From contig JAUSGQ010000007.1 of the NCBI GenBank assembly GCA_030674455.1, forward strand, positions 83,947 through 147,946: DNA of 64,000 nt, written 5' to 3'. Below the pieces are notes generated by a model, which did no database searches, was not told the DNA's origin, and was given only the letters and a program-made list of their open reading frames with translations. The position numbers and the translations under genes are program-made. Source of the DNA: a bacterium (lineage in GTDB: Bacteria > Patescibacteriota > Minisyncoccia > Phycocordibacterales > UBA2100). Of the stretch, positions 43,531 through 57,705 are shown piece after piece; positions within the stretch are counted from its first letter, which is position 1; every line of letters starts with the position of its first letter.

Positions 43531-44276
43531 AGGTTAGTCAGACTAACCTTTATTCAAACTCCGCTTGCAACCATTTTCCCCCTTCAATTACGTCTCTAGC
43601 GAAATTCTTGAAAGATCTCGGTGTCGTAAATATCTCTCCTAGCAAATCTTTCTCGATAATCGGCAGCTGTGAAGAGTTTGCATAATGACTAAGACTTGAG
43701 TATTTGTACTCAATCCCCCATTCCCATGCATCTTCAAAATGCTCGGTAGCGCCGCGCAGACCACCCTTCGGATATAACTCAAACACATTTTTCACCATGA
43801 TGTATGCCGATACATACCGTAAATAATTATCGTTCTCTATGGTGCGTCCTCGGTACGAACCCTGAAAGATGCTTCCTTGCTGGTCGTATTTCTCGTTGTG
43901 ATAGTTCGTCATGCTCTGACACAGCTTTTGCATGAAGGCAGAAATCCCGCCTTCACGTATCTCTTTTAGGAGAAGATGAAAGTGATTCGGCATGAGCGTG
44001 TACGCGAGAATTCGCACAAGTGGTTCTCTGTCGGGCCACGTCGCAGGCCTAAAGAATCGCCCATCAAGGTCTGCGCTATACCAGTTCTCATCGAAAAATT
44101 CGTCGTTCATATAATACAGCAGGCGCAAAAAACGCCACTGCTCCGATTCGTCTTCAGTGATGGGCAATCCTCGCGCACCTCGCTTTACCACATGCACATA
44201 CGAGTCAACCCCGAAAGGCTCTACACGCATACCTCATTCTACCCTATAGGTTAGTCTGACTAACCTTTATTCAAAC
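43531..44276 (-). mobile_element. IS200/IS605-family (tnpA-only) element bounded by direct copies of the hairpin repeat GGTTAGTCWGACTAACC-TTTATTCAAAC
   Basis: The 28-bp repeat is present at ~43531-43558 and ~44249-44276, flanking the transposase ORF. The core GGTTAGTC/GACTAACC is an imperfect palindrome. Confidence 0.55.
43550..44230 (-). CDS. IS200-like / REP-associated Y1 (HUH) tyrosine transposase
   Basis: It has the HUH motif LMPNHFHLLLKE and a conserved Tyr region (YLRYVSAYIMVKN). It is 226 aa, the same size as, and related to, the transposase at 18532-19212. Confidence 0.75.
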   Translation of the reverse strand: MRVEPFGVDSYVHVVKRGARGLPITEDESEQWRFLRLLYYMNDEFFDENWYSADLDGRFFRPATWPDREPLVRILAYTLMPNHFHLLLKEIREGGISAFMQKLCQSMTNYHNEKYDQQGSIFQGSYRGRTIENDNYLRYVSAYIMVKNVFELYPKGGLRGATEHFEDAWEWGIEYKYSSLSHYANSSQLPIIEKDLLGEIFTTPRSFKNFARDVIEGGKWLQAEFE

Positions 44277-44344: not shown

Positions 44345-45109
44345 TTAGGCAAGATTGCGCAAGAGCTTGTCCACACTTGCGCGCGTGCTGAAGTAATATT
44401 TTGCCGCGCTTTTTGATGATCTGCCAACCCGGATAGTAATGCCGTCGGTAAGGGCGCGAAAGGCGTCTTCATCGGTGGCGTCGTCGCCGATATATATCGG
44501 CACGGCTTTCGCGAGTGAGCACCTGCTCGCGAGACGGACCGCATCGCCTTTCGTGCGGCTCTCGAGCGAACGTATGTTGAAAATGTATTCGCTCCCTTCG
44601 CTAATATCAAGAAAATTTGTAAATTGTTTTGAGATACTCCTCATCTCCCTGCTAAATCGCGCAACACGCCTGCGCGCGAGTGCGCGAAAATGCACGCTAA
44701 AAGTCAACTTTTTGTCCTCCACAACGACTCCTCGGTAACATCGCGAAAGTTCAGTGAACGCTCTTCGCGCTTCGCTAAGCTTCGCGCACGCCGCGCGCGT
44801 AAGCTTCTCGCGGCCTCGCATCTTTCCCATCCGCCATTCTGCGCCGTGATTGCCGGCGTACCATACGCCTGCCTGATTGACACGAGCGCGCACATCCGCA
44901 AGAGCTCGGCCGGAAATTACGGCAACGCGGCCGCCCGCAGCGCATTTGGCGAGGCAGGCGCGCGTGCGCCTCGACACGCGCGCCATGCGAGGACGAGCAA
45001 CGATAGGCGCAAGAACCCCGTCAAAATCAAGAATGAGCAAGAAACCGTTTTCTTTGACGCGCCTAAGTATACTGCCCATGTGTTTGTCGGCGTTTCTCAT
45101 CCTATTCAA
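44345..45109 (-). CDS. otsB: trehalose-6-phosphate phosphatase (HAD-IIB)
   Basis: HAD motif I is LILDFDGVLAP and motif IV is IGDDATDEDAF. It lies immediately downstream of, and overlapping, otsA. The region is GC-rich. Confidence 0.75.
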   Translation of the reverse strand: MNRMRNADKHMGSILRRVKENGFLLILDFDGVLAPIVARPRMARVSRRTRACLAKCAAGGRVAVISGRALADVRARVNQAGVWYAGNHGAEWRMGKMRGREKLTRAACAKLSEARRAFTELSRCYRGVVVEDKKLTFSVHFRALARRRVARFSREMRSISKQFTNFLDISEGSEYIFNIRSLESRTKGDAVRLASRCSLAKAVPIYIGDDATDEDAFRALTDGITIRVGRSSKSAAKYYFSTRASVDKLLRNLA

Positions 45110-47306
45110 GCTGCGAAAGTGCTTTAATAAGTTCTGCCGACCAGCGGTAAATATTGTATTCGCGGACTGAAGCGCGCATCGTTTTCATGCGGCGGTGCTG
45201 TTCCGTCTTCGGCATCGAGAGCGCCGTGTGAAGCGCGGCGGAAGTTTCTTCCGCGCTATATGGATTGACCACAAGCGCGCCTTTGAGGTCTCGAGACGCC
45301 CCCGCAAACTGGCTAATGACCAGTACTCCTGATTCATCGCGCCTTGCGGCCGCAAATTCTTTGGCGACGAGGTTCATGCCGTCATGCAGAGAGGTGACAA
45401 GGCATACGTCGGCGAGCTGATAGAGGTTGCGAAGCTCCGCGTGGCTATAACTGCGTCGTTCAAGGATAATCGGCTTCCAGTCCTTGGTACCGAATTTCTC
45501 GTTTATCCTCTCGGATTCGGCAACGACCCTTTGGGCGTACTCGCGGAACATACCGACCGATTCGCGCGTGGGAGACCCTATTTGCAGAAGCGTGGTCGTG
45601 CCTCGGTATTCTGCATGGCCGTCCAGAAGAAATTCAAACCCTTTGAAGCGCTCCGGTATGCCTTTGATGTAGTCTAGCCGGTCGACTCCGAGTATAAGGT
45701 TGCCGCGTATCTTTAGTTTAACCAATATGTTTCTATCGGGCGTCTCGCTCGGCTCGGCATTGCCAGGATATGCGATGGATATCGGGAACGGCTTCACGAA
45801 AGTGCGGTGGGCTTCGCGAAAAATAGAGAAGTGCTCGTAGTCTATGCGCGATTCGACTTCGCTCGCGACCGTGTCCATGAAATTGTTGCAGTTTTGCTGA
45901 GTATGAAATCCCATTAGGTCCGCGCCGAGCATTCCCTCAAGTATCTCCTTTCGCCACGGGCAGATGTTGAATTGAGTGGCCGACGGCCAGGGAATATGCC
46001 AGAACATCGCTACCTGCGCGTCGGGACGGCTCTTTTTGATGAGCGCAGGCACGAGAGCCAGATGATAGTCTTGCACGAGTACTATAGGGTGCTCAACATG
46101 GCGTATTTCCTCAAGAAGCGTCTTCGCGAAGAGGCCGTTCACTTTGCGATACGCAAGCCAGTCCTCTTTCCGAAATTGCGGCCGCACATGAGCCATGTGG
46201 CATAGCGGCCAGAGCGCCTCGTTAGAGAAACCGTTGTAGTATCCCTTGGCGTCTTTGGGAGAGACCCAAACGCGCTTCAGCGTATATTTCGGCTCTTCTG
46301 GCGGGACACTAAGCTTCCCATCCGCACCAGCGGTTTCTCTGTCGGCAGCGCCGCTGCCATGGGCAATCCACATGCCTCCGCACGCCTCCATTACCGGTTC
46401 CATCGCTGTGATGACTCCGCCTGCTGGCGTTGTCCACTTGACCTCGCCCCTCACCTTGGTGTTCACATACGGTTCTCCATTGGAAAGAATGAATATCGGC
46501 CTGTCTTTGAGATGCGCTTTTATAAATTCCTTGAGGCGCTCGGCTGTCCATGGCGAATCCAGTTTTTCCAGACGCATCCGTGCTTCTTCGCTCGCCACTC
46601 GCCGCGCTTGGCGCAGACTCGTTGTAACTTTGGAAATTTCACCTGCGAGCGGTTCAAAGAAACTTGAACTCGGTGCCGTGTCGACTTCGGAATCGCCTTT
46701 GCGCACCGCCTTGAGCGACTCGACCATCTTGGAGATAGCTTGGGAAAAAACCCATCGCACCAGGACAAAGATAGCGGCTGAAAAAATCAGTAGAAGGAAT
46801 AGCAGACGAATAATGTTGTCTTTCCAAATGAGGCGAATGTTTTCGTCGATGTATGTAGCGTTCTGCGCGACAGCGAGAGCTCCAACGACTCGCTCGTCTT
46901 CGTGGAGCGGTATCACATGTACATAGTAGGTACCGTCGTTGCGGCGAATGAACTCTCCTCCGGCTTCGTCGCTATCCATCGCCGTTGCTACAAGTTTGCC
47001 ATCTTTCGTAATCGGCATGTCTAAAGACCCCGCGACTAGGACTCCCGAACTGTTAAAAACGCTAATGCCCGCAAGTCGTTCGCTGCTGACAAACCTATCG
47101 ATTATCCTTTGCACAGTGCTCGTCGCACGCGTGTTGTATGACGGCTCAATGCTTTCCGCAAGACTGTCCGCCAATACCTGGCTTCGGGATTGCATGCGCG
47201 AGGTAAGCTCAAGCTTTGCCTGATTGGCTTGGCTCATCGCGAAATACCCCGCAATGAGAATTACAACCAGAACGGCGCTACCCGCGATCTGTAGGACCTG
47301 CTTCAT
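45102..47306 (-). CDS. otsA: alpha,alpha-trehalose-phosphate synthase (GT20) fused to an N-terminal two-TM sensor domain plus HAMP-like linker
   Basis: The GT20 core spans ~250-734 ([44 protein letters not shown]...). The N-terminus has TM1 ([13 protein letters not shown]), an ~150-aa extracytoplasmic segment, TM2 ([23 protein letters not shown]) and a HAMP-like helix pair ([12 protein letters not shown]...[14 protein letters not shown]). Confidence 0.8.
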
Positions 47307-51952: not shown

Positions 51953-52864
51953 ATGCGCACAGACTATAAGCACAACGGTATTATGTGGATAGACCTTGAA
52001 TCGCCGACAAAAGAGGAAGTGAGCGGGATAGTCGACCAATTCGGTGTGTCAACGATGGTAGCGGAGGAGCTGCTCGTTCCTTCTATGAAGCCGCGGACGG
52101 AATTTTATGATTCTTACGTGTACGTAGTCCTGCACTTCCCTTCCCTGCGACGTTCGCACAGACCGATAGAACAGGAAATTGATTTCATTGTCGGGCGCGA
52201 TTTCATAATTACGACCCATTACGACATCGTTGACCCACTTCACAAATTTTCAAAAGTGTTTGAAGTTAATTCTCTGTTGGACAAGAGCAATATGGGCAAC
52301 CATGCGGGGTTTTTCTTTTTTTATATGCTGAAGAAGCTGTATAAAGGCGTCGAATACGAAGTTGAGCGTGTTCGCCATCATTTAAGTACTATTGAGGGAG
52401 ACATATTCACGGGACACGAGGCAGGTATGGTGGAAGTAATATCAAGGGCGGCACGGGACCTCCTGAATCTGCGACAAATTATTGAGCCTCACCGCGAAGT
52501 TTTGCGTACAATTGAAGCAGAAGGGGCGAGGCTTTTCGGTGAAGATTTCATGCCTTATTTACGCGCCTTATCCAATGATTATTACCGCGTCCACAACCAT
52601 GTCATGCGCAATACTGAATCGCTTCACGAACTTCGTGAGACCAATAATTCACTCCTTTCGACGAAAGAGAACGAAACGATGCGCGTACTTACCATCATGG
52701 CGCTTCTCACTTTCCCGCTGTCGCTTCTCGTGGCGATAATGGAAATCGACAGTGTTTACAACCCCATCAAAGGTCAGCCGTACGATTTTTGGATCGTCGT
52801 AGGTATTGTTCTTTTGCTCGGTTCGTCCATGATCGCATACTTCAAGCACAGAAAGTGGTTCTAA
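51953..52864 (+). CDS. CorA-like (MIT family) divalent cation transporter with non-canonical pore motif
   Basis: The N-terminal CorA cytoplasmic domain pattern is present (MWIDLESPTKEEVSGIVDQFGV...FIVGRDFIITTHYD), with two C-terminal TM helices. The canonical YGMNF after TM1 is replaced by IMEIDS. TATAAT lies 6 nt upstream of the ATG. Confidence 0.6.
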   Translation: MRTDYKHNGIMWIDLESPTKEEVSGIVDQFGVSTMVAEELLVPSMKPRTEFYDSYVYVVLHFPSLRRSHRPIEQEIDFIVGRDFIITTHYDIVDPLHKFSKVFEVNSLLDKSNMGNHAGFFFFYMLKKLYKGVEYEVERVRHHLSTIEGDIFTGHEAGMVEVISRAARDLLNLRQIIEPHREVLRTIEAEGARLFGEDFMPYLRALSNDYYRVHNHVMRNTESLHELRETNNSLLSTKENETMRVLTIMALLTFPLSLLVAIMEIDSVYNPIKGQPYDFWIVVGIVLLLGSSMIAYFKHRKWF

Positions 52865-52872
52865 AATCCTTC

Positions 52873-54378
52873 ATGGGCATTCCATTCATTAAAAAGTTGT
52901 GGAACAGAGTATCGGGAAAGCCCGCTCTCTTTTTCTACAACACCCTCGGTGCCTCAAAGCAGGAATTTACTCTGCCTCCCCCGGCAAGAACCGTTCGTAT
53001 GTACAACTGCGGGCCGACCGTATACGACGTCCAGCATATAGGCAATCTTTCCATGTTCGTTTTTACCGACACGCTGCGGAAAGTACTCGAATACAATAAT
53101 TATTCGGTCAAGCAAGTCATCAACATTACCGACGTGGGCCATCTGACTTCAGACAGTGACGAGGGCGAAGACAAGATGACCAAGGGCATTGAGCGCGAAG
53201 GGCTCGAGATGACGCTTGAGAATATGCTGAGCCTCGGGGAGAGATATACAGGGATATTTCTGCAAGATCTGACTAATCTCGATATCCCTATTGATAAGAT
53301 CAAGTTCCCGCGGGCGAGCGAGTACATCAAAGCACAAGTGGCGATGATAGCGACTCTTATTGAGAAAGAATTCGCGTATCGCACTTCTGACGGAGTCTAT
53401 TTTGATACCTCTCGATACCCGGCCTATGGAGCCCTCGGAGGATTACACTCGGAAGCCCAAATTGAAGGAGCGCGGATAGCCGCAAATAGAAACAAGCGCA
53501 ACCAGGCAGATTTTGCTTTATGGAAGCTCTCCTCCAGAGGAGGATCCGCCTCCGGCGGAAATATATCAGGCTGGGATAGCCCCTGGGGAAAGGGTTTTCC
53601 CGGCTGGCACATCGAGTGCTCGGCAATGGCACGCGCCGAACTCGGGCAACAAATCGACATTCACACCGGCGGTATCGAGCACATCTCAATACATCACAAC
53701 AACGAAATCGCGCAATCAGAATGTGCGACAGGGCGAAAGCCATTTTCAAGGTTCTGGATGCACCGTGCCCATATACAGATAGACTCTAAGAAAATATCAA
53801 AATCGCTTGGTAACGTTTTATATTTATCAGACATAACCGCTCGCGGGTTACATCCCTTGTCTTTCCGCTATTTGCTTTTGGGAGCGCATTACCGCACACC
53901 TCTTAATTTTACGTGGGCAGCCCTTGCCTCCTCAGAAAAAGCATTTCTCCGGTTGCGCATGATCGCCGACAGTTACCCCGCAGGCGGCAACGTGCCTAAG
54001 CAATATAAAAAGCGATTTCATAAACGCGTCAATGATGATGTGGATACCGCCGGCGCTCTCGCCGTAATTTGGGAAATGGTAAAGGATAATTCGTTGTCTC
54101 GCGCGGACGTCCGCGCCGGTATTTTGGATGTAGACAAAGTGCTTGGACTGAATCTTGCGGGCACTGATGAGAAAGCGACTGCCGCGTGTATTAAACTCTT
54201 TGGCAAGAAGGTTGAGATTGAGCAGTTGCCCGAAAATGTGCGGACAATGATAGATGAAAGAAATGTCGCGCGAGAAAAGAAGGAATGGGAACAAGCCGAC
54301 CTATTGCGCAAGAATATTGAGAACATGGGGTATATTCTGGAAGACACGGGGACAGAAACGATAATTTTCAAGAAATAA
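52873..54378 (+). CDS. cysS: cysteine--tRNA ligase
   Basis: CGPTVYDVQHIGN (HIGH), the zinc ligand region GWHIECSAM, KISKS (KMSKS), and the C-terminal anticodon-binding domain with ARKEKEWEQADLLRKNIENMGYILEDTGTET are present. Confidence 0.85.
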   Translation: MGIPFIKKLWNRVSGKPALFFYNTLGASKQEFTLPPPARTVRMYNCGPTVYDVQHIGNLSMFVFTDTLRKVLEYNNYSVKQVINITDVGHLTSDSDEGEDKMTKGIEREGLEMTLENMLSLGERYTGIFLQDLTNLDIPIDKIKFPRASEYIKAQVAMIATLIEKEFAYRTSDGVYFDTSRYPAYGALGGLHSEAQIEGARIAANRNKRNQADFALWKLSSRGGSASGGNISGWDSPWGKGFPGWHIECSAMARAELGQQIDIHTGGIEHISIHHNNEIAQSECATGRKPFSRFWMHRAHIQIDSKKISKSLGNVLYLSDITARGLHPLSFRYLLLGAHYRTPLNFTWAALASSEKAFLRLRMIADSYPAGGNVPKQYKKRFHKRVNDDVDTAGALAVIWEMVKDNSLSRADVRAGILDVDKVLGLNLAGTDEKATAACIKLFGKKVEIEQLPENVRTMIDERNVAREKKEWEQADLLRKNIENMGYILEDTGTETIIFKK

Positions 54379-54436: not shown

Positions 54437-57400
54437 TCACTCCCCTTCCAAAACAAAATTTACAAGTCGGCTGGGTACATAAATCGTGCGTAATATCTTC
54501 TTGCCCTCCACGCGCGAGCCAACTGCCGCGAGCGCCGCATCTTCAACAGTCTTTTTATCCGAATCAGTCGGCACTTGAACTTCTCCGCGTGTTCTGCCGT
54601 TTATCTGAATTGCGATAGTAACATTCTCGTCTCTCAGCAAAGCAGGATCAAACACCGGCCACTTTTCAAGATGAATCGATGATTTATTTCCGGCTTCATG
54701 CCACAACTCTTCTGTTATATGCGGAGCGAACGGTGATAAAAGCTTCAGAAATACTCCAAATTGTTCCTGGCCGATTGCGCCTTCTTTTTCTATCGCATTC
54801 AAAAGTATCATCAAAGAGCTGATAGCCGTATTGAATTTGAGCAGAGCTATATCTTCTCCAATTTTTTTAACAGTCCTGTGCAACACCGGTTCTATGTTCG
54901 CATTTACTGTCAACTGTGGACTGTCAACTGTAGACTGTCCCATCCGCCACACTCGTTCAAGAAATCTGCGGATTCCTACGACGCCGTCCGGATTCCACGG
55001 GTAGCTTGAAACCTCGTTGTAAGGGCCGATGAACGCAAGATACATGCGCACCGTGTCGGCTCCCAAGCGCTCCACTACCAGGTCGGGGTCAATGACATTC
55101 CCGCGCGACTTGCTCATCTTCTGCCCGTCGGGCCCCAGTATCAAACTCCTGTTCATTCGCCGCTTGTATGGTTCCGATTCCCCCACCAGCCCCAAGTCAA
55201 ATAGCGCTTTGTGCCAGAAGCGCGAATAGAGAAGGTGCATGGTCGTATGTTCCGCTCCTCCCGAATAAAGATTTACGGGCATCCAATTCGCTTGCTTCTC
55301 TTTGCTAGCGAATTCCTTCTTGTTGTTGGGGTCTGTGTAGCGCAGGAAATACCATGACGAATCGACGAACGTATCCAGCGTGTCTGTCTCGCGCTCCGCC
55401 TCGCCTGCGCACTTTGGGCACTTTGCGGCAACCCATTTCTTCGCCTTGGCGAGCGGCGACTTCCCGCTCCCTTCGGGTAGATAATCTTTGACCTCGGGCA
55501 GCTCCACGGGCAAGTCCACGTCTCCGACCGGCTGTGAGCCGCACTTTCCGCAATGGATAATCGGTATTGGCACTCCCCAATATCTCTGCCTCGATACTAT
55601 CCAATCGCGAAGCTTGTAAGTGGTTTTCTTAACGCCCAATTCTTCCGTAATGGCTTCCCTTCCTTTCTGCGATGTCAGGCCACTGAACCTGCCGGAATCT
55701 ATCATCAGCCCTTCTCCCATGTAGGGAAGTTCGCCGCCGTTTTTGTCCGCGTTGTTCCGCGTTTGGGCCGATAGGGTTTGTATCGGCACCTGTAGACGGT
55801 CTGCGTTAATCTGCGCCGATATGACTTCCCTTATGGGAAGACCATATCGGGATGCAAACTCAAAGTCGCGCTCGTCGTGCGCCGGCACTGCCATAATCGC
55901 ACCCGTGCCGTAATGGCCGAGTACGTAATCGGCAATATAAACAGGAATCCTTTCCCGTGTCGCGGGATTGATTGCATCCACACCCTCGAGCCTCACTCCT
56001 GTTTTTTCTTTATTCGTCTGGCGGTCCATATCTGATTTCTTTTCAGTTAGGGCGATATATCGCCCTATTTCCTTCTCATTGCGGAGAAGCCGCTGATGCG
56101 CGAGGGCGCGTTTGACCCAAGGATGTTCAGGTGCAAGCACGACGTACGTTGCACCAAAGAGCGTGTCTGGGCGGGTCGTAAAGACAGTAATGCGCGGCAT
56201 AAGCTGTGCTAATACGAGCGGCTCTTGCGCGCCCAGGAAATGCTCCTCATTGGCTTTTCCTTCTGCTATCTGCGCATCAAGAATGTCGGCTAGGTGTGCA
56301 ATGTACGCCCCGCGCTTGCCTTTTTCCGCCGCATCAGAAAGTACGAGTCTTAAACCGGCAAGCGTCTTGAGTTTGTCGTACTTGATATCCCACGAAAAGT
56401 CTTTCCAATACGTTCTCGGTTCCGCATTCGCAAATGCCGAATCTATTGCCGGAGCTACGAGAACCAACCCGCCTACCGGACGATTTATTTTTTGCAGCAA
56501 TTTCATCGCCACAACTGCTCCCAGGCTATGGCCGATGATGACGGTGTTCTCATCTATGTGGCAGTGGTCGAACACGTATTTGACTTGCTCGTATTCCTTC
56601 GGCTCGCTCGTATTTGGAAGTTCAGGTGCTTGGACGGCATACCCCTTGCTCTCGAGCTCTCGCTTGAGCCACGAAAAAAATGCGCCGGTAGGGCTTCCTT
56701 TGTAGCCGTGCAGAAGCAAAAAATTCGGCTGCGGAGCATTTTTATTCTCAAATTCAATCGGAAAACTTATTTCGGCCCCATTGCTGCGCCCTATCCAATT
56801 CCTTTGCGACTCCTTGATTTGCTCCGGCCAATCTAAGCCGGATAGATCGTCTATCAATCTATCCGCGTAATCCGTTATCTTGATATTCCACTGGAGCATC
56901 TTCTTCTGCACCACTTCGCTGTCACAGCGTTCGCATTTACCGTCCGTAACTTGTTCATTGGCAAGAACCGTTTTGTCTTTTGGACACCAATTAACCGCAG
57001 TCTCTTTTTGATACGCCAACCCTTTCTTAAAAAGCTGCAGGAACAACCATTGCGTCCATTTGTAATAATCAGGGTTGCACGTGATTACTTCGCGCGACCA
57101 GTCAAACGATGTCCCCATAGAGGCAATTTGCTTTTTCATATATGCAATATTCCCTTCCGTCCACGTGCGCGGATTGAGCTTGTTCTTTATTGCCGCATTT
57201 TCCGCAGGCAGGCCGAAGGCGTCAAAACCAATCGGATACATCACGTTCTTGCCTTGCATGCGAAGCGCGCGCGCTAAAATATCCGGCACGGCAAATGCGT
57301 ACCAATGCCCGGCGTGAAGATTTCCGGAAGGATACGGGAATTCTACGAGCAGGTAGAAGTTCTCTTTCTTGCCCGCCGTAGCTTTACTGTGTCCGTCCGT

Positions 57401-57523
57401 AGCCTTGAGCGAAGGAGGAGCGGAGGCGGGACCGGGCGCCTTGTCCGGCGTTGTGTAAATCTTGCTTGTCTTCCAATATTTCTGCCACTTGCGCTCAATG
57501 GCCTTATGGTCGTATTTCTTCAT
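54437..57523 (-). CDS. leuS: leucine--tRNA ligase with an inserted alpha/beta-hydrolase (Ser_hydrolase/YdeN-RBBP9-like) domain preceding the CP1 editing domain
   Basis: LeuRS motifs are FPYPSGNLHAGH (HIGH), NWIGRS, TTRPDTLFGATY plus GTGAIMAVPAHDERDFEFA (CP1 editing), and KMSKS. Between NWIGRSNGAEISFPIEF and ITVFTTRPDT lies a ~195-aa insert with LLLHGYKGSP (oxyanion HG), GHSLG (nucleophile elbow), and candidate Asp (LVLSDAAE) and His (AYIAHL) residues. Confidence 0.85.
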   Translation of the reverse strand: MKKYDHKAIERKWQKYWKTSKIYTTPDKAPGPASAPPSLKATDGHSKATAGKKENFYLLVEFPYPSGNLHAGHWYAFAVPDILARALRMQGKNVMYPIGFDAFGLPAENAAIKNKLNPRTWTEGNIAYMKKQIASMGTSFDWSREVITCNPDYYKWTQWLFLQLFKKGLAYQKETAVNWCPKDKTVLANEQVTDGKCERCDSEVVQKKMLQWNIKITDYADRLIDDLSGLDWPEQIKESQRNWIGRSNGAEISFPIEFENKNAPQPNFLLLHGYKGSPTGAFFSWLKRELESKGYAVQAPELPNTSEPKEYEQVKYVFDHCHIDENTVIIGHSLGAVVAMKLLQKINRPVGGLVLVAPAIDSAFANAEPRTYWKDFSWDIKYDKLKTLAGLRLVLSDAAEKGKRGAYIAHLADILDAQIAEGKANEEHFLGAQEPLVLAQLMPRITVFTTRPDTLFGATYVVLAPEHPWVKRALAHQRLLRNEKEIGRYIALTEKKSDMDRQTNKEKTGVRLEGVDAINPATRERIPVYIADYVLGHYGTGAIMAVPAHDERDFEFASRYGLPIREVISAQINADRLQVPIQTLSAQTRNNADKNGGELPYMGEGLMIDSGRFSGLTSQKGREAITEELGVKKTTYKLRDWIVSRQRYWGVPIPIIHCGKCGSQPVGDVDLPVELPEVKDYLPEGSGKSPLAKAKKWVAAKCPKCAGEAERETDTLDTFVDSSWYFLRYTDPNNKKEFASKEKQANWMPVNLYSGGAEHTTMHLLYSRFWHKALFDLGLVGESEPYKRRMNRSLILGPDGQKMSKSRGNVIDPDLVVERLGADTVRMYLAFIGPYNEVSSYPWNPDGVVGIRRFLERVWRMGQSTVDSPQLTVNANIEPVLHRTVKKIGEDIALLKFNTAISSLMILLNAIEKEGAIGQEQFGVFLKLLSPFAPHITEELWHEAGNKSSIHLEKWPVFDPALLRDENVTIAIQINGRTRGEVQVPTDSDKKTVEDAALAAVGSRVEGKKILRTIYVPSRLVNFVLEGE

Positions 57524-57636
57524 ACTCTTTCTGCCTGCCCGTCCGAAGCTTTACTGTGTCCGTCCGTAGCCTTGTGCGAAGGAGGAGCGAAGGCGGGCCA
57601 GTTCTTTTCTATCTTTTTATGGTCGTATTTCTTCAT
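57520..57636 (-). CDS. 38-aa upstream ORF derived from a partial duplication of the leuS 5-prime end, stop overlapping the leuS ATG (ATGA)
   Basis: It translates to MKKYDHKKIEKNWPAFAPPSHKATDGHSKASDGQAERV, compared with leuS MKKYDHKAIERKW...PASAPPSLKATDGHSKATAGK. The DNA segment 57541-57636 is a near-copy of 57370-57523 with an internal deletion. Confidence 0.4.
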   Translation of the reverse strand: MKKYDHKKIEKNWPAFAPPSHKATDGHSKASDGQAERV

Positions 57637-57705
57637 ATATTTACCATATCATAACGCATACATGCCGAAAACCCCGCATAGTATGCGGGGTTTTCGGCTA
57701 TTAAT

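Follow-up and report, generated by a model that had tools for sequence, protein, structure and literature searches.

A predicted α/β serine hydrolase nested beside the editing domain of leucyl-tRNA synthetase in Patescibacteria

The stretch of DNA analysed here (64,000 nucleotides of contig JAUSGQ010000007.1, assembly GCA_030674455.1; hereafter the ‘window’) carries, on its minus strand, an open reading frame (ORF) for a bacterial-type leucyl-tRNA synthetase (LeuRS) that appears to hold a second enzyme within it: an α/β serine hydrolase of the YdeN/RBBP9 family (PF06821), which interrupts the CP1 editing domain at the tip of its first β-hairpin and has its putative catalytic residues in place. 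We give roughly even chances to the reading that this enzyme works autonomously, lodged in a loop that tolerates insertions and produced along with the synthetase.

The preliminary description of this ORF had already read it as a LeuRS with a complete hydrolase lying beside CP1, and in this it was right: the boundaries of the ORF are exact, and its product scores 954 bits against the equivalog-level profile for bacterial LeuRS (TIGR00396, leuS_bact; cutoff 548), as well as matching the Thermus thermophilus enzyme (PDB: 1H3N) with an E-value of 1.9e-211 in a phmmer search. NCBI lists an identical protein, encoded on a 154-kb contig, under the name ‘MAG: leucine--tRNA ligase [bacterium]’ (MAG, metagenome-assembled genome). 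In a scan of one genome per Genome Taxonomy Database (GTDB) species, the nearest species-level genomes are a Candidatus Kaiserbacteria MAG (L002), whose LeuRS is 82–87% identical to the query with the insert and CP1 excluded, and one other Patescibacteria MAG. The component parts of the gene are these:

54437..57523, minus strand: leuS ORF (stop codon included), bacterial-type LeuRS of 1028 amino acids (TIGR00396) with the nested hydrolase
56750..57523, minus strand: first half of the catalytic (Rossmann) body, residues 1–258 (PF00133 over residues 48–244; aligns to T. thermophilus 2–240)
57305-57316, minus strand: HIGH motif HAGH, residues 70–73, within residues 1–258
end of 56750..57523, minus strand: first strand of the CP1 hairpin, residues 246–258 (predicted strand E246–258)
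56195..56749, minus strand: nested YdeN/RBBP9-family (PF06821) α/β serine hydrolase module, residues 259–443
55628..56194, minus strand: CP1 editing domain proper, residues 444–632 (PF13603 over residues 442–629; alignment to T. thermophilus)
56162-56179, minus strand: Thr-rich motif TTRPDT, residues 449–454, in CP1
55865-55882, minus strand: AHDERD, residues 548–553, in CP1
54440..55627, minus strand: second half of the catalytic body with the anticodon-binding and C-terminal domains, residues 633–1028 (PF08264 over residues 880–992)
55106-55120, minus strand: KMSKS, residues 802–806, within residues 633–1028

On either side of the insert the protein aligns cleanly to 1H3N, with residues 2–260 corresponding to 2–240 of the T. 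thermophilus enzyme and residues 444–798 to 242–580, such that ~183 extra residues (~259–443), rather than the ~195 first estimated, lie between ‘FPIEFEN’ and ‘RITVFTTRPDT’ at a point where T. thermophilus has a single residue. The insertion point is the tip of the first CP1 β-hairpin (T. thermophilus ‘AEILFPVEGKE / RIPVFTTRPDT’, the slash marking the position), and the C-terminal junction falls just five residues upstream of the Thr-rich editing motif TTRPDT. The GC content across the insert is unremarkable. A Pfam scan of the LeuRS ORF found no intein or homing-endonuclease domain, and inspection of the boundaries (...EFENKNAP / ...AQLMPRITVF) found no intein splice residues; with neither Pfam support nor splice residues, an intein or mobile-element origin of the insert was rejected. 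The window has no second hydrolase and no second leuS copy elsewhere.

The host itself retains what a LeuRS needs for synthesis and editing. Residues T449, T450 and T454 of CP1 align with T. thermophilus T247, T248 and T252, and D550 and D553 with D344 and D347; across 60 relatives T450, T454, D550 and D553 are invariant and T449 is at least 90% conserved, bearing out the earlier statement that the native CP1, with its TTRPDT and AHDERD motifs, is intact. As far as alignment can tell, all synthetic and CP1 editing residues are kept, and because those of CP1 are all present the native editing site has not been replaced by the hydrolase. The leucine-specific domain (T. thermophilus 581–636) is missing, query residues 798 and 802 corresponding to T. 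thermophilus 580 and 637 (the sequence there being ...LILGPDGQKMSKS...; window 55106-55132, residues ~798–806), and it is likewise missing in 11 of 11 relatives inspected. This domain is not a universal requirement in LeuRS, and membership of the family therefore stands despite its absence. The query also has a low-complexity N-terminal insert that is disordered in the model of the full-length protein, a model whose overall predicted template-modelling score (pTM) is only 0.60.

Turning to the insert, the match to PF06821 (Ser_hydrolase) has an E-value of 1.4e-11 and scores 41.3–45.1 bits against a gathering score of 22. The profile alignment is limited to positions 2–94 of 172, the N-terminal half of the family; the C-terminal half of the insert is backed by structure comparison and by a phmmer alignment to YdeN residues 8–161. 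The top sequence matches in the PDB by phmmer are Bacillus subtilis YdeN (PDB: 1UXO; 4.7e-11 over 154 residues) and human RBBP9 (2e-8). Modelled alone with AlphaFold2, the insert gives a mean predicted local distance difference test score (pLDDT) of 95.9 and a pTM of 0.91, and Foldseek ranks the same two proteins at the top, with template-modelling (TM) scores of 0.80 for 1UXO and 0.79 for RBBP9; the YdeN/RBBP9-like fold that had been proposed from motifs is thus what modelling returns. In the full-length model, block-mean pLDDT over residues 271–440 is 84–95, with 77 for the block at the N-terminal junction, and the β-α-β order of a minimal α/β hydrolase can be followed through the insert. 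The fold is lid-less, of ~180–190 residues, and superposable on YdeN and RBBP9. Judged by these models, the insert is an autonomously folding, lid-less α/β hydrolase; failure to model as one had been named at the outset as an outcome that would count against the proposal.

Conservation was counted over 120 LeuRS homologues of 55–79% overall identity and, more widely, over 227 copies of the domain from every host type, including 68 standalone proteins. The residues concerned are:

56705..56710, minus strand: HG oxyanion-hole motif, His272-Gly273 (LLLHGY); His in 120/120, Gly in 115/120
56519..56533, minus strand: nucleophile elbow G331-H-S333-L-G335; Ser in 119/120 LeuRS relatives and 226/227 copies across hosts
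56324..56335, minus strand: acid region D397-A-A-E400; D397 in 120/120, position 400 Asp in 83 and Glu in 37
56237..56245, minus strand: E427-His428-F429, the putative catalytic His in a (G/P/E)-H-F motif (NEEHFLG); His in 120/120, Phe in 116/120; His in 223/227 copies across hosts

Both the oxyanion motif (LLLHGY) and the nucleophile elbow (GHSLG) had been picked out from the sequence beforehand, and the counts uphold them. The histidine had been placed elsewhere, in AYIAHL (H410), a variable column where only 11 of 120 relatives have His; the conserved histidine is H428. The acid had been sought in LVLSDAAE. Asp397 of that segment is invariant, whereas it is Glu400, three residues further on, that lines up with the canonical Asp of the D-D-P-x-(V/L)-P loop (Asp138 in RBBP9) when YdeN and standalone relatives are compared, a position acidic in all 120 LeuRS homologues. 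Asp occupies position 397 in the majority of embedded copies, irrespective of host, and in only 11 of 68 standalone copies. From alignment the catalytic acid could be either Asp397 or Glu400. A counterpart of Glu108, the residue that anchors the α-amine in RBBP9, could not be identified in the query by sequence alignment.

Mean identity to relatives is 40% for the insert and 70% for the rest of the protein, the module, outside its catalytic residues, evolving about twice as fast as the synthetase; and because the catalytic set stays constant against this fast-changing background, selection appears to act on catalysis. A single relative, a 977-residue LeuRS (P0104), has lost the nucleophile, with GHLFG in place of GHSLG, the sole such case in the 120; it keeps Asp397 and His428, and its hydrolase is possibly an inactivated copy.

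How widespread is this architecture? A word-index protein search with the insert alone returned six standalone proteins and missed the embedded copies, and we relied instead on HMMER, run exhaustively against 1.84 billion cluster representatives and yielding 1520 relatives of the insert at E ≤1e-3. The GTDB scan finds the module encoded in at least 286 species genomes, the labels, hosts and positions given here for that scan being taken from the best 80 loci. Seventy-nine of these 80 are labelled as Patescibacteria lineages or bear only generic labels, as do many MAGs, the named lineages being Kaiser-, Doudna-, Lipton-, Yanofsky-, Uhr-, Kerfeld-, Komeili- and Taylorbacteria, Spechtbacterales, Minisyncoccia and Saccharibacteria, including Nanosynbacter. 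One locus (L072, CAZKXN010000010.1) is labelled ‘uncultured Gammaproteobacteria bacterium’ yet encodes a typical Patescibacteria-type LeuRS with nested hydrolase, and probably represents a mislabelled or mis-binned MAG. The host is LeuRS at 62 of the 80 loci and isoleucyl-tRNA synthetase (IleRS) at 18, counts that are biased in that the searches were seeded with a LeuRS-embedded copy; in all 62 LeuRS loci the module lies before CP1, as far as the retrieved stretch reaches. Similarly, 119 of the best 120 homologues are full-length LeuRS of ~960–1160 residues, with room for the insert and, in most, hydrolase Pfam matches on record; the lineages represented are Kaiserbacteria, Paceibacterota, Minisyncoccota and other Patescibacteria. 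On this sequence evidence the architecture is a lineage-wide trait, inherited across many classes of Patescibacteria.

The hydrolase is not the only guest of these synthetases. A second position, which we term ‘site B’, lies inside CP1:

55733..55810, minus strand: disordered loop inside CP1 (site B), residues 572–597; pLDDT <50, no NUDIX in the query

In 85 of the 120 closest relatives (for example P0005, P0009, P0011, P0025 and P0093) site B holds a NUDIX module with an intact Nudix box, and PF00293 (NUDIX) is recorded in LeuRS forms of ~1125 residues. Its presence is patchy among close relatives, the query having only a disordered loop of ~30 residues. We considered whether this loop might be a decayed NUDIX domain and rejected the idea, the alignment revealing no residual Nudix box; an apparent tblastn match to NUDIX at site B was also discarded, being due to flanking CP1 sequence in the search query.

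In the 18 IleRS loci, all labelled Saccharibacteria, the module sits ~10 residues before the WTTTPWT editing motif, at a site homologous to that of LeuRS, and shares its surroundings with NUDIX, low-molecular-weight (LMW) phosphatase and GNAT domains and sometimes a second hydrolase-like copy. One IleRS (L036) has an LMW phosphotyrosine-phosphatase-like domain, NUDIX and Ser_hydrolase nested around CP1; another (L075) has Ser_hydrolase with GNAT; and two more (L049, from Candidatus Nanosynbacter sp., and L045) have NUDIX, Ser_hydrolase and a second, more divergent hydrolase-like copy after WTTTPW, which in L049 has Tyr in place of His. Within LeuRS, the cluster representatives show three positions for the module—before TTRPDT, after the CP1 core, and at residues 722–876 of P0249—and at the first of these some combine it with NUDIX or GNAT. 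It is nested sporadically in other proteins, namely an alanyl-tRNA synthetase (AlaRS; between the catalytic and editing parts), a valyl-tRNA synthetase (ValRS), a formyltransferase of Met-tRNA resembling Fmt, a Kae1 of archaeal type, a UvrA and a fragment of SecA (P0158, P0182, P0248, P0197, P0194, P0183). It is also found in free-standing Ser_hydrolase-NUDIX and NUDIX-Ser_hydrolase proteins, as a tandem double hydrolase and fused to adenylate kinase (P0196, P0201, P0164, P0260); since free-standing two-domain fusions exist, the pairing of hydrolase with NUDIX recurs outside the synthetases.

By pairwise identity, which is a measure of distance and not a phylogeny, the IleRS copies are nearest to LeuRS-embedded copies (53–55%), with any standalone protein much further away, and the copies in ValRS, AlaRS, Kae1, UvrA and Fmt likewise have LeuRS-embedded copies as nearest neighbours; for the SecA copy a single standalone protein is nearest, with LeuRS-embedded copies just behind. 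These neighbours suggest, therefore, that one hydrolase subfamily has moved between hosts. In one 998-residue LeuRS (P0177) a Y1/IS200-like transposase domain (PF01797, 52.8 bits) is nested at the hairpin site that the hydrolase occupies in the query, and this nested transposase may hint at the route by which guests enter in frame. The window also has a separate ORF of 226 amino acids with a Y1_Tnp match (43550-44230, minus strand).

The module is very probably a working serine hydrolase: Ser333 would attack a small acyl substrate, passing through an acyl-Ser333 intermediate, and by analogy with RBBP9 this substrate would most likely be an ester or amide of an α-aminoacyl group whose α-amine is free. 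In the reading we give about even chances, it would act autonomously. Of the characterised relatives RBBP9 is the nearest; this serine aminopeptidase accepts only acyl groups that have an unblocked α-amine, forms trapped acyl adducts with Leu/Ile, Met, Phe, Tyr and Trp, and has been crystallised with Phe (PDB: 7OEX; PMC8866121). Activation of valacyclovir, in which L-valine esterifies a nucleoside analogue, has also been reported for RBBP9 (Shenoy et al. 2020, as cited in PMC7730578). Because of this chemistry an α-aminoacyl ester of adenosine, such as forms the 3′ end of aminoacyl-tRNA, is a plausible substrate class. The enzyme would be nested through a structurally permissive loop and thereby tethered to an abundant essential protein and made 1:1 with it, and the cycle of tRNA proofreading would probably not require its action. 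The existence of free-standing relatives and of free-standing hydrolase-NUDIX fusions supports such autonomy, as does the one standalone homologue whose neighbourhood we inspected, which showed no linkage to synthetase genes (n = 1). That the module takes several sites in LeuRS and varied hosts, in loops shared with NUDIX, GNAT, LMW-phosphatase and Y1 transposase domains, speaks against a role tied to the geometry of the ‘editing hinge’; and it is because sites, hosts and co-guests vary that we lean slightly towards a tethered enzyme acting autonomously over a second site dedicated to editing. Saying this, several observations pull the other way. Embedded copies are overwhelmingly in proofreading synthetases (LeuRS, IleRS, ValRS, AlaRS) or in Fmt, which handles aminoacyl-tRNA; the commonest site in LeuRS and IleRS is identical and adjoins the editing pocket; the IleRS copies appear to derive from LeuRS-type copies, at 53–55% identity; and Asp397, rare in standalone proteins, hints at specialisation for the embedded context.

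These same observations feed the strongest of the alternatives, that the module is a second, cis-acting proofreading or clearance site, deacylating mischarged aminoacyl-tRNA, or hydrolysing aminoacyl-adenylate or other aminoacyl esters of adenosine, that CP1 does not handle. The insert ends five residues before TTRPDT in LeuRS and ~10 before WTTTPWT in IleRS; editing synthetases and Fmt are enriched among its hosts; the known chemistry of RBBP9 (a free amine on the α-aminoacyl group, adducts with Leu/Ile, a nucleoside analogue esterified by an amino acid) would fit the aminoacyl-A76 ester; the module is kept across many classes of the candidate phyla radiation (CPR) with an invariant catalytic set; and Asp397 is typical of embedded copies. 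Against this, the CP1 editing residues are intact and invariant, leaving no obvious gap to fill, and with three sites in LeuRS the geometry with respect to the tRNA 3′ end is not conserved. Moreover, neither UvrA, SecA and Adk as hosts nor the LMW phosphatase and Y1 transposase as co-guests have any connection with editing, standalone relatives are abundant, and synthetases in general tolerate insertions, as others have noted (2026 domain-insertion survey). We regard a cis-acting site of this kind as possible, at well below even chances. In its fullest form the idea would make the module a new type of proofreading module, a cis aminoacyl-ester hydrolase that supplements CP1 in the LeuRS and IleRS (and ValRS and AlaRS) of Patescibacteria, with NUDIX and GNAT possibly completing an expanded, lineage-specific quality-control toolkit around an α/β-hydrolase-based editing module; this we put forward tentatively, as rather unlikely.

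A role in amino-acid supply seems to us improbable. Here the module would be an aminopeptidase that frees hydrophobic N-terminal residues from imported peptides beside the synthetases that use them. Patescibacteria are missing most amino-acid biosynthesis, the main hosts (LeuRS, IleRS, ValRS and AlaRS) charge aliphatic amino acids, and the aminopeptidase RBBP9 traps Leu/Ile, Met and aromatic residues, which by analogy would suit such a task; but Fmt, Kae1, Adk, UvrA and SecA do not fit as hosts, tethering would gain little for a diffusible amino acid, and the sequence offers no identifiable counterpart of the RBBP9 α-amine anchor Glu108. It is less probable still, and by some way, that the insert is a non-catalytic structural or regulatory element of hydrolase descent, for instance a docking surface or a spacer that alters the mobility of CP1: the lost nucleophile of P0104 and the fast evolution of the insert (40% versus 70% identity) would agree with this, whereas the Ser, His, acid and oxyanion motif are kept in ~99% of copies of an otherwise variable domain. 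Least likely of all, and hardly credible, is that the insert is artefactual or selfish, whether a chimera created in assembly or an intein-like or mobile insertion that does nothing for its host: the Y1 (IS200-like) transposase domain at the same LeuRS site in P0177, the Y1_Tnp ORF of the window and a visible rearrangement at the leuS 5′ end could be taken in its favour, yet the catalytic residues are under constraint and the GC content is unremarkable, and an assembly chimera was rejected outright, the same in-frame architecture recurring in hundreds of independent assemblies.

Set beside the characterised members of its family, RBBP9 and YdeN (PF06821; PDB: 2QS9, 7OEX, 1UXO), the module has the same HG oxyanion motif, G-H-S-x-G elbow, x-H-F histidine motif, acidic residue at the canonical position and length of ~180 residues; it differs in being nested inside another enzyme where the known members are free-standing, in having E400 for the canonical Asp together with the additional invariant Asp397 three residues earlier, and in an identity of only 20–25%. 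The valacyclovirase BPHL (PDB: 2OCG) differs both in its subfamily and in possessing a cap domain, and the free-standing trans-editing factors AlaX, YbaK/ProX and Dtd have unrelated folds. To our knowledge, no α/β hydrolase is known to edit aminoacyl-tRNA. The host, for its part, shares with canonical LeuRS (T. thermophilus, PDB: 1H3N and 2BYT; Escherichia coli, PDB: 4AQ7 and 4ARC) the HIGH and KMSKS motifs, the Thr-rich motif and Asp residues of CP1, and the anticodon-binding and C-terminal domains, while the CP1 hairpin, of 1–8 residues in those two enzymes, here bears an enzyme of 183 residues; relative to both, the leucine-specific domain is gone and a disordered, low-complexity N-terminal insert has been added.

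A curated precedent for an accessory enzyme domain nested in a class Ia synthetase exists in the NCBIfam model NF040702 (‘ileS_w_GNAT’), where both host (IleRS) and guest (GNAT) differ from ours, and some Saccharibacteria IleRS in this analysis share that GNAT, paired with the hydrolase. NCBIfam has no curated model for LeuRS with a hydrolase, the query matching the generic leuS_bact alone. Names given to the relatives at NCBI vary between ‘leucine--tRNA ligase’, ‘class I tRNA ligase family protein’ and ‘alpha/beta fold hydrolase’, and a single Joint Genome Institute (JGI) entry is called ‘leucyl-tRNA synthetase/predicted esterase YcpF’. We found no description of a hydrolase nested in LeuRS in a full-text literature search, one with most subscription journals outside its reach, and the 2026 domain-insertion survey classes the editing domain of LeuRS as insertion-exclusive, counting no event in which it acts as host. 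The earlier suggestion of an undescribed architecture therefore survives as regards the literature searched and needs tempering in another respect, the arrangement being widespread in Patescibacteria and present, unremarked, in databases. What appears to be new, as far as the literature searched goes, is the combination of a PF06821 hydrolase with a LeuRS host, each part being of a known family.

At its 5′ end the gene shows a rearrangement of its own:

57530..57637, minus strand: partial duplication of the leuS 5′ end, directly upstream of the start codon (68-nt repeat and 21-nt copy of the start)

A 68-nt segment of leuS (57363-57430, codons ~32–54, ...ASAPPSLKATDGHSKATAGKK...), encoding the disordered N-terminal insert, is repeated upstream of the start at 87% identity, and 21 nt of the leuS start are also copied there without mismatch. 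Read as codons, this upstream copy forms a mini-ORF of 38 codons (MKKYDHKKIEKNWPAFAPPSHKATDGHSKASDGQAERV*) whose stop overlaps the leuS ATG; it would be either a partial 5′ duplication or possibly a leader peptide. With two local copies only, the 68-nt repeat was rejected as a dispersed element of the repetitive extragenic palindromic (REP) kind. The same N-terminal peptide insert recurs in the non-adjacent relatives P0005 and P0025, and not in the closest ones. Further upstream, between a DUF5671 gene and leuS, is a perfect 17-nt inverted repeat with a 1-nt loop (GCCGAAAACCCCGCATA / TATGCGGGGTTTTCGGC; window 57664-57698), probably the terminator of the upstream gene. On the other side, a gene for cysteinyl-tRNA synthetase (CysRS; 52789-54378, plus strand) converges with leuS across a gap of 58 nt. 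The window also encodes, at 44345-47306 (minus strand), a GT20 trehalose-6-phosphate synthase of 734 amino acids, with a ~285-residue N-terminal region that has no Pfam match, and a trehalose phosphatase. Neither Rfam models nor a tRNA search gave any match in the window.

Aminoacyl-tRNA synthetases are among the best-studied of enzymes, and their editing domains are the textbook case of inserted modules, which according to the 2026 survey never take in other domains themselves. Here a large bacterial radiation, including the cultivable and genetically tractable oral Saccharibacteria, carries hydrolase, NUDIX, GNAT and phosphatase modules, catalytically intact to all appearances, in or beside the editing domains of its LeuRS and IleRS. 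Should aminoacyl esters be its substrates, the hydrolase would represent a proofreading site of a new class and a new means by which minimal cells secure fidelity; should it be autonomous, it would exemplify a strategy of genome streamlining in which essential small enzymes are parked inside essential large ones. On either reading, inconsistent database names would be corrected, and the system is one that can be tested directly.

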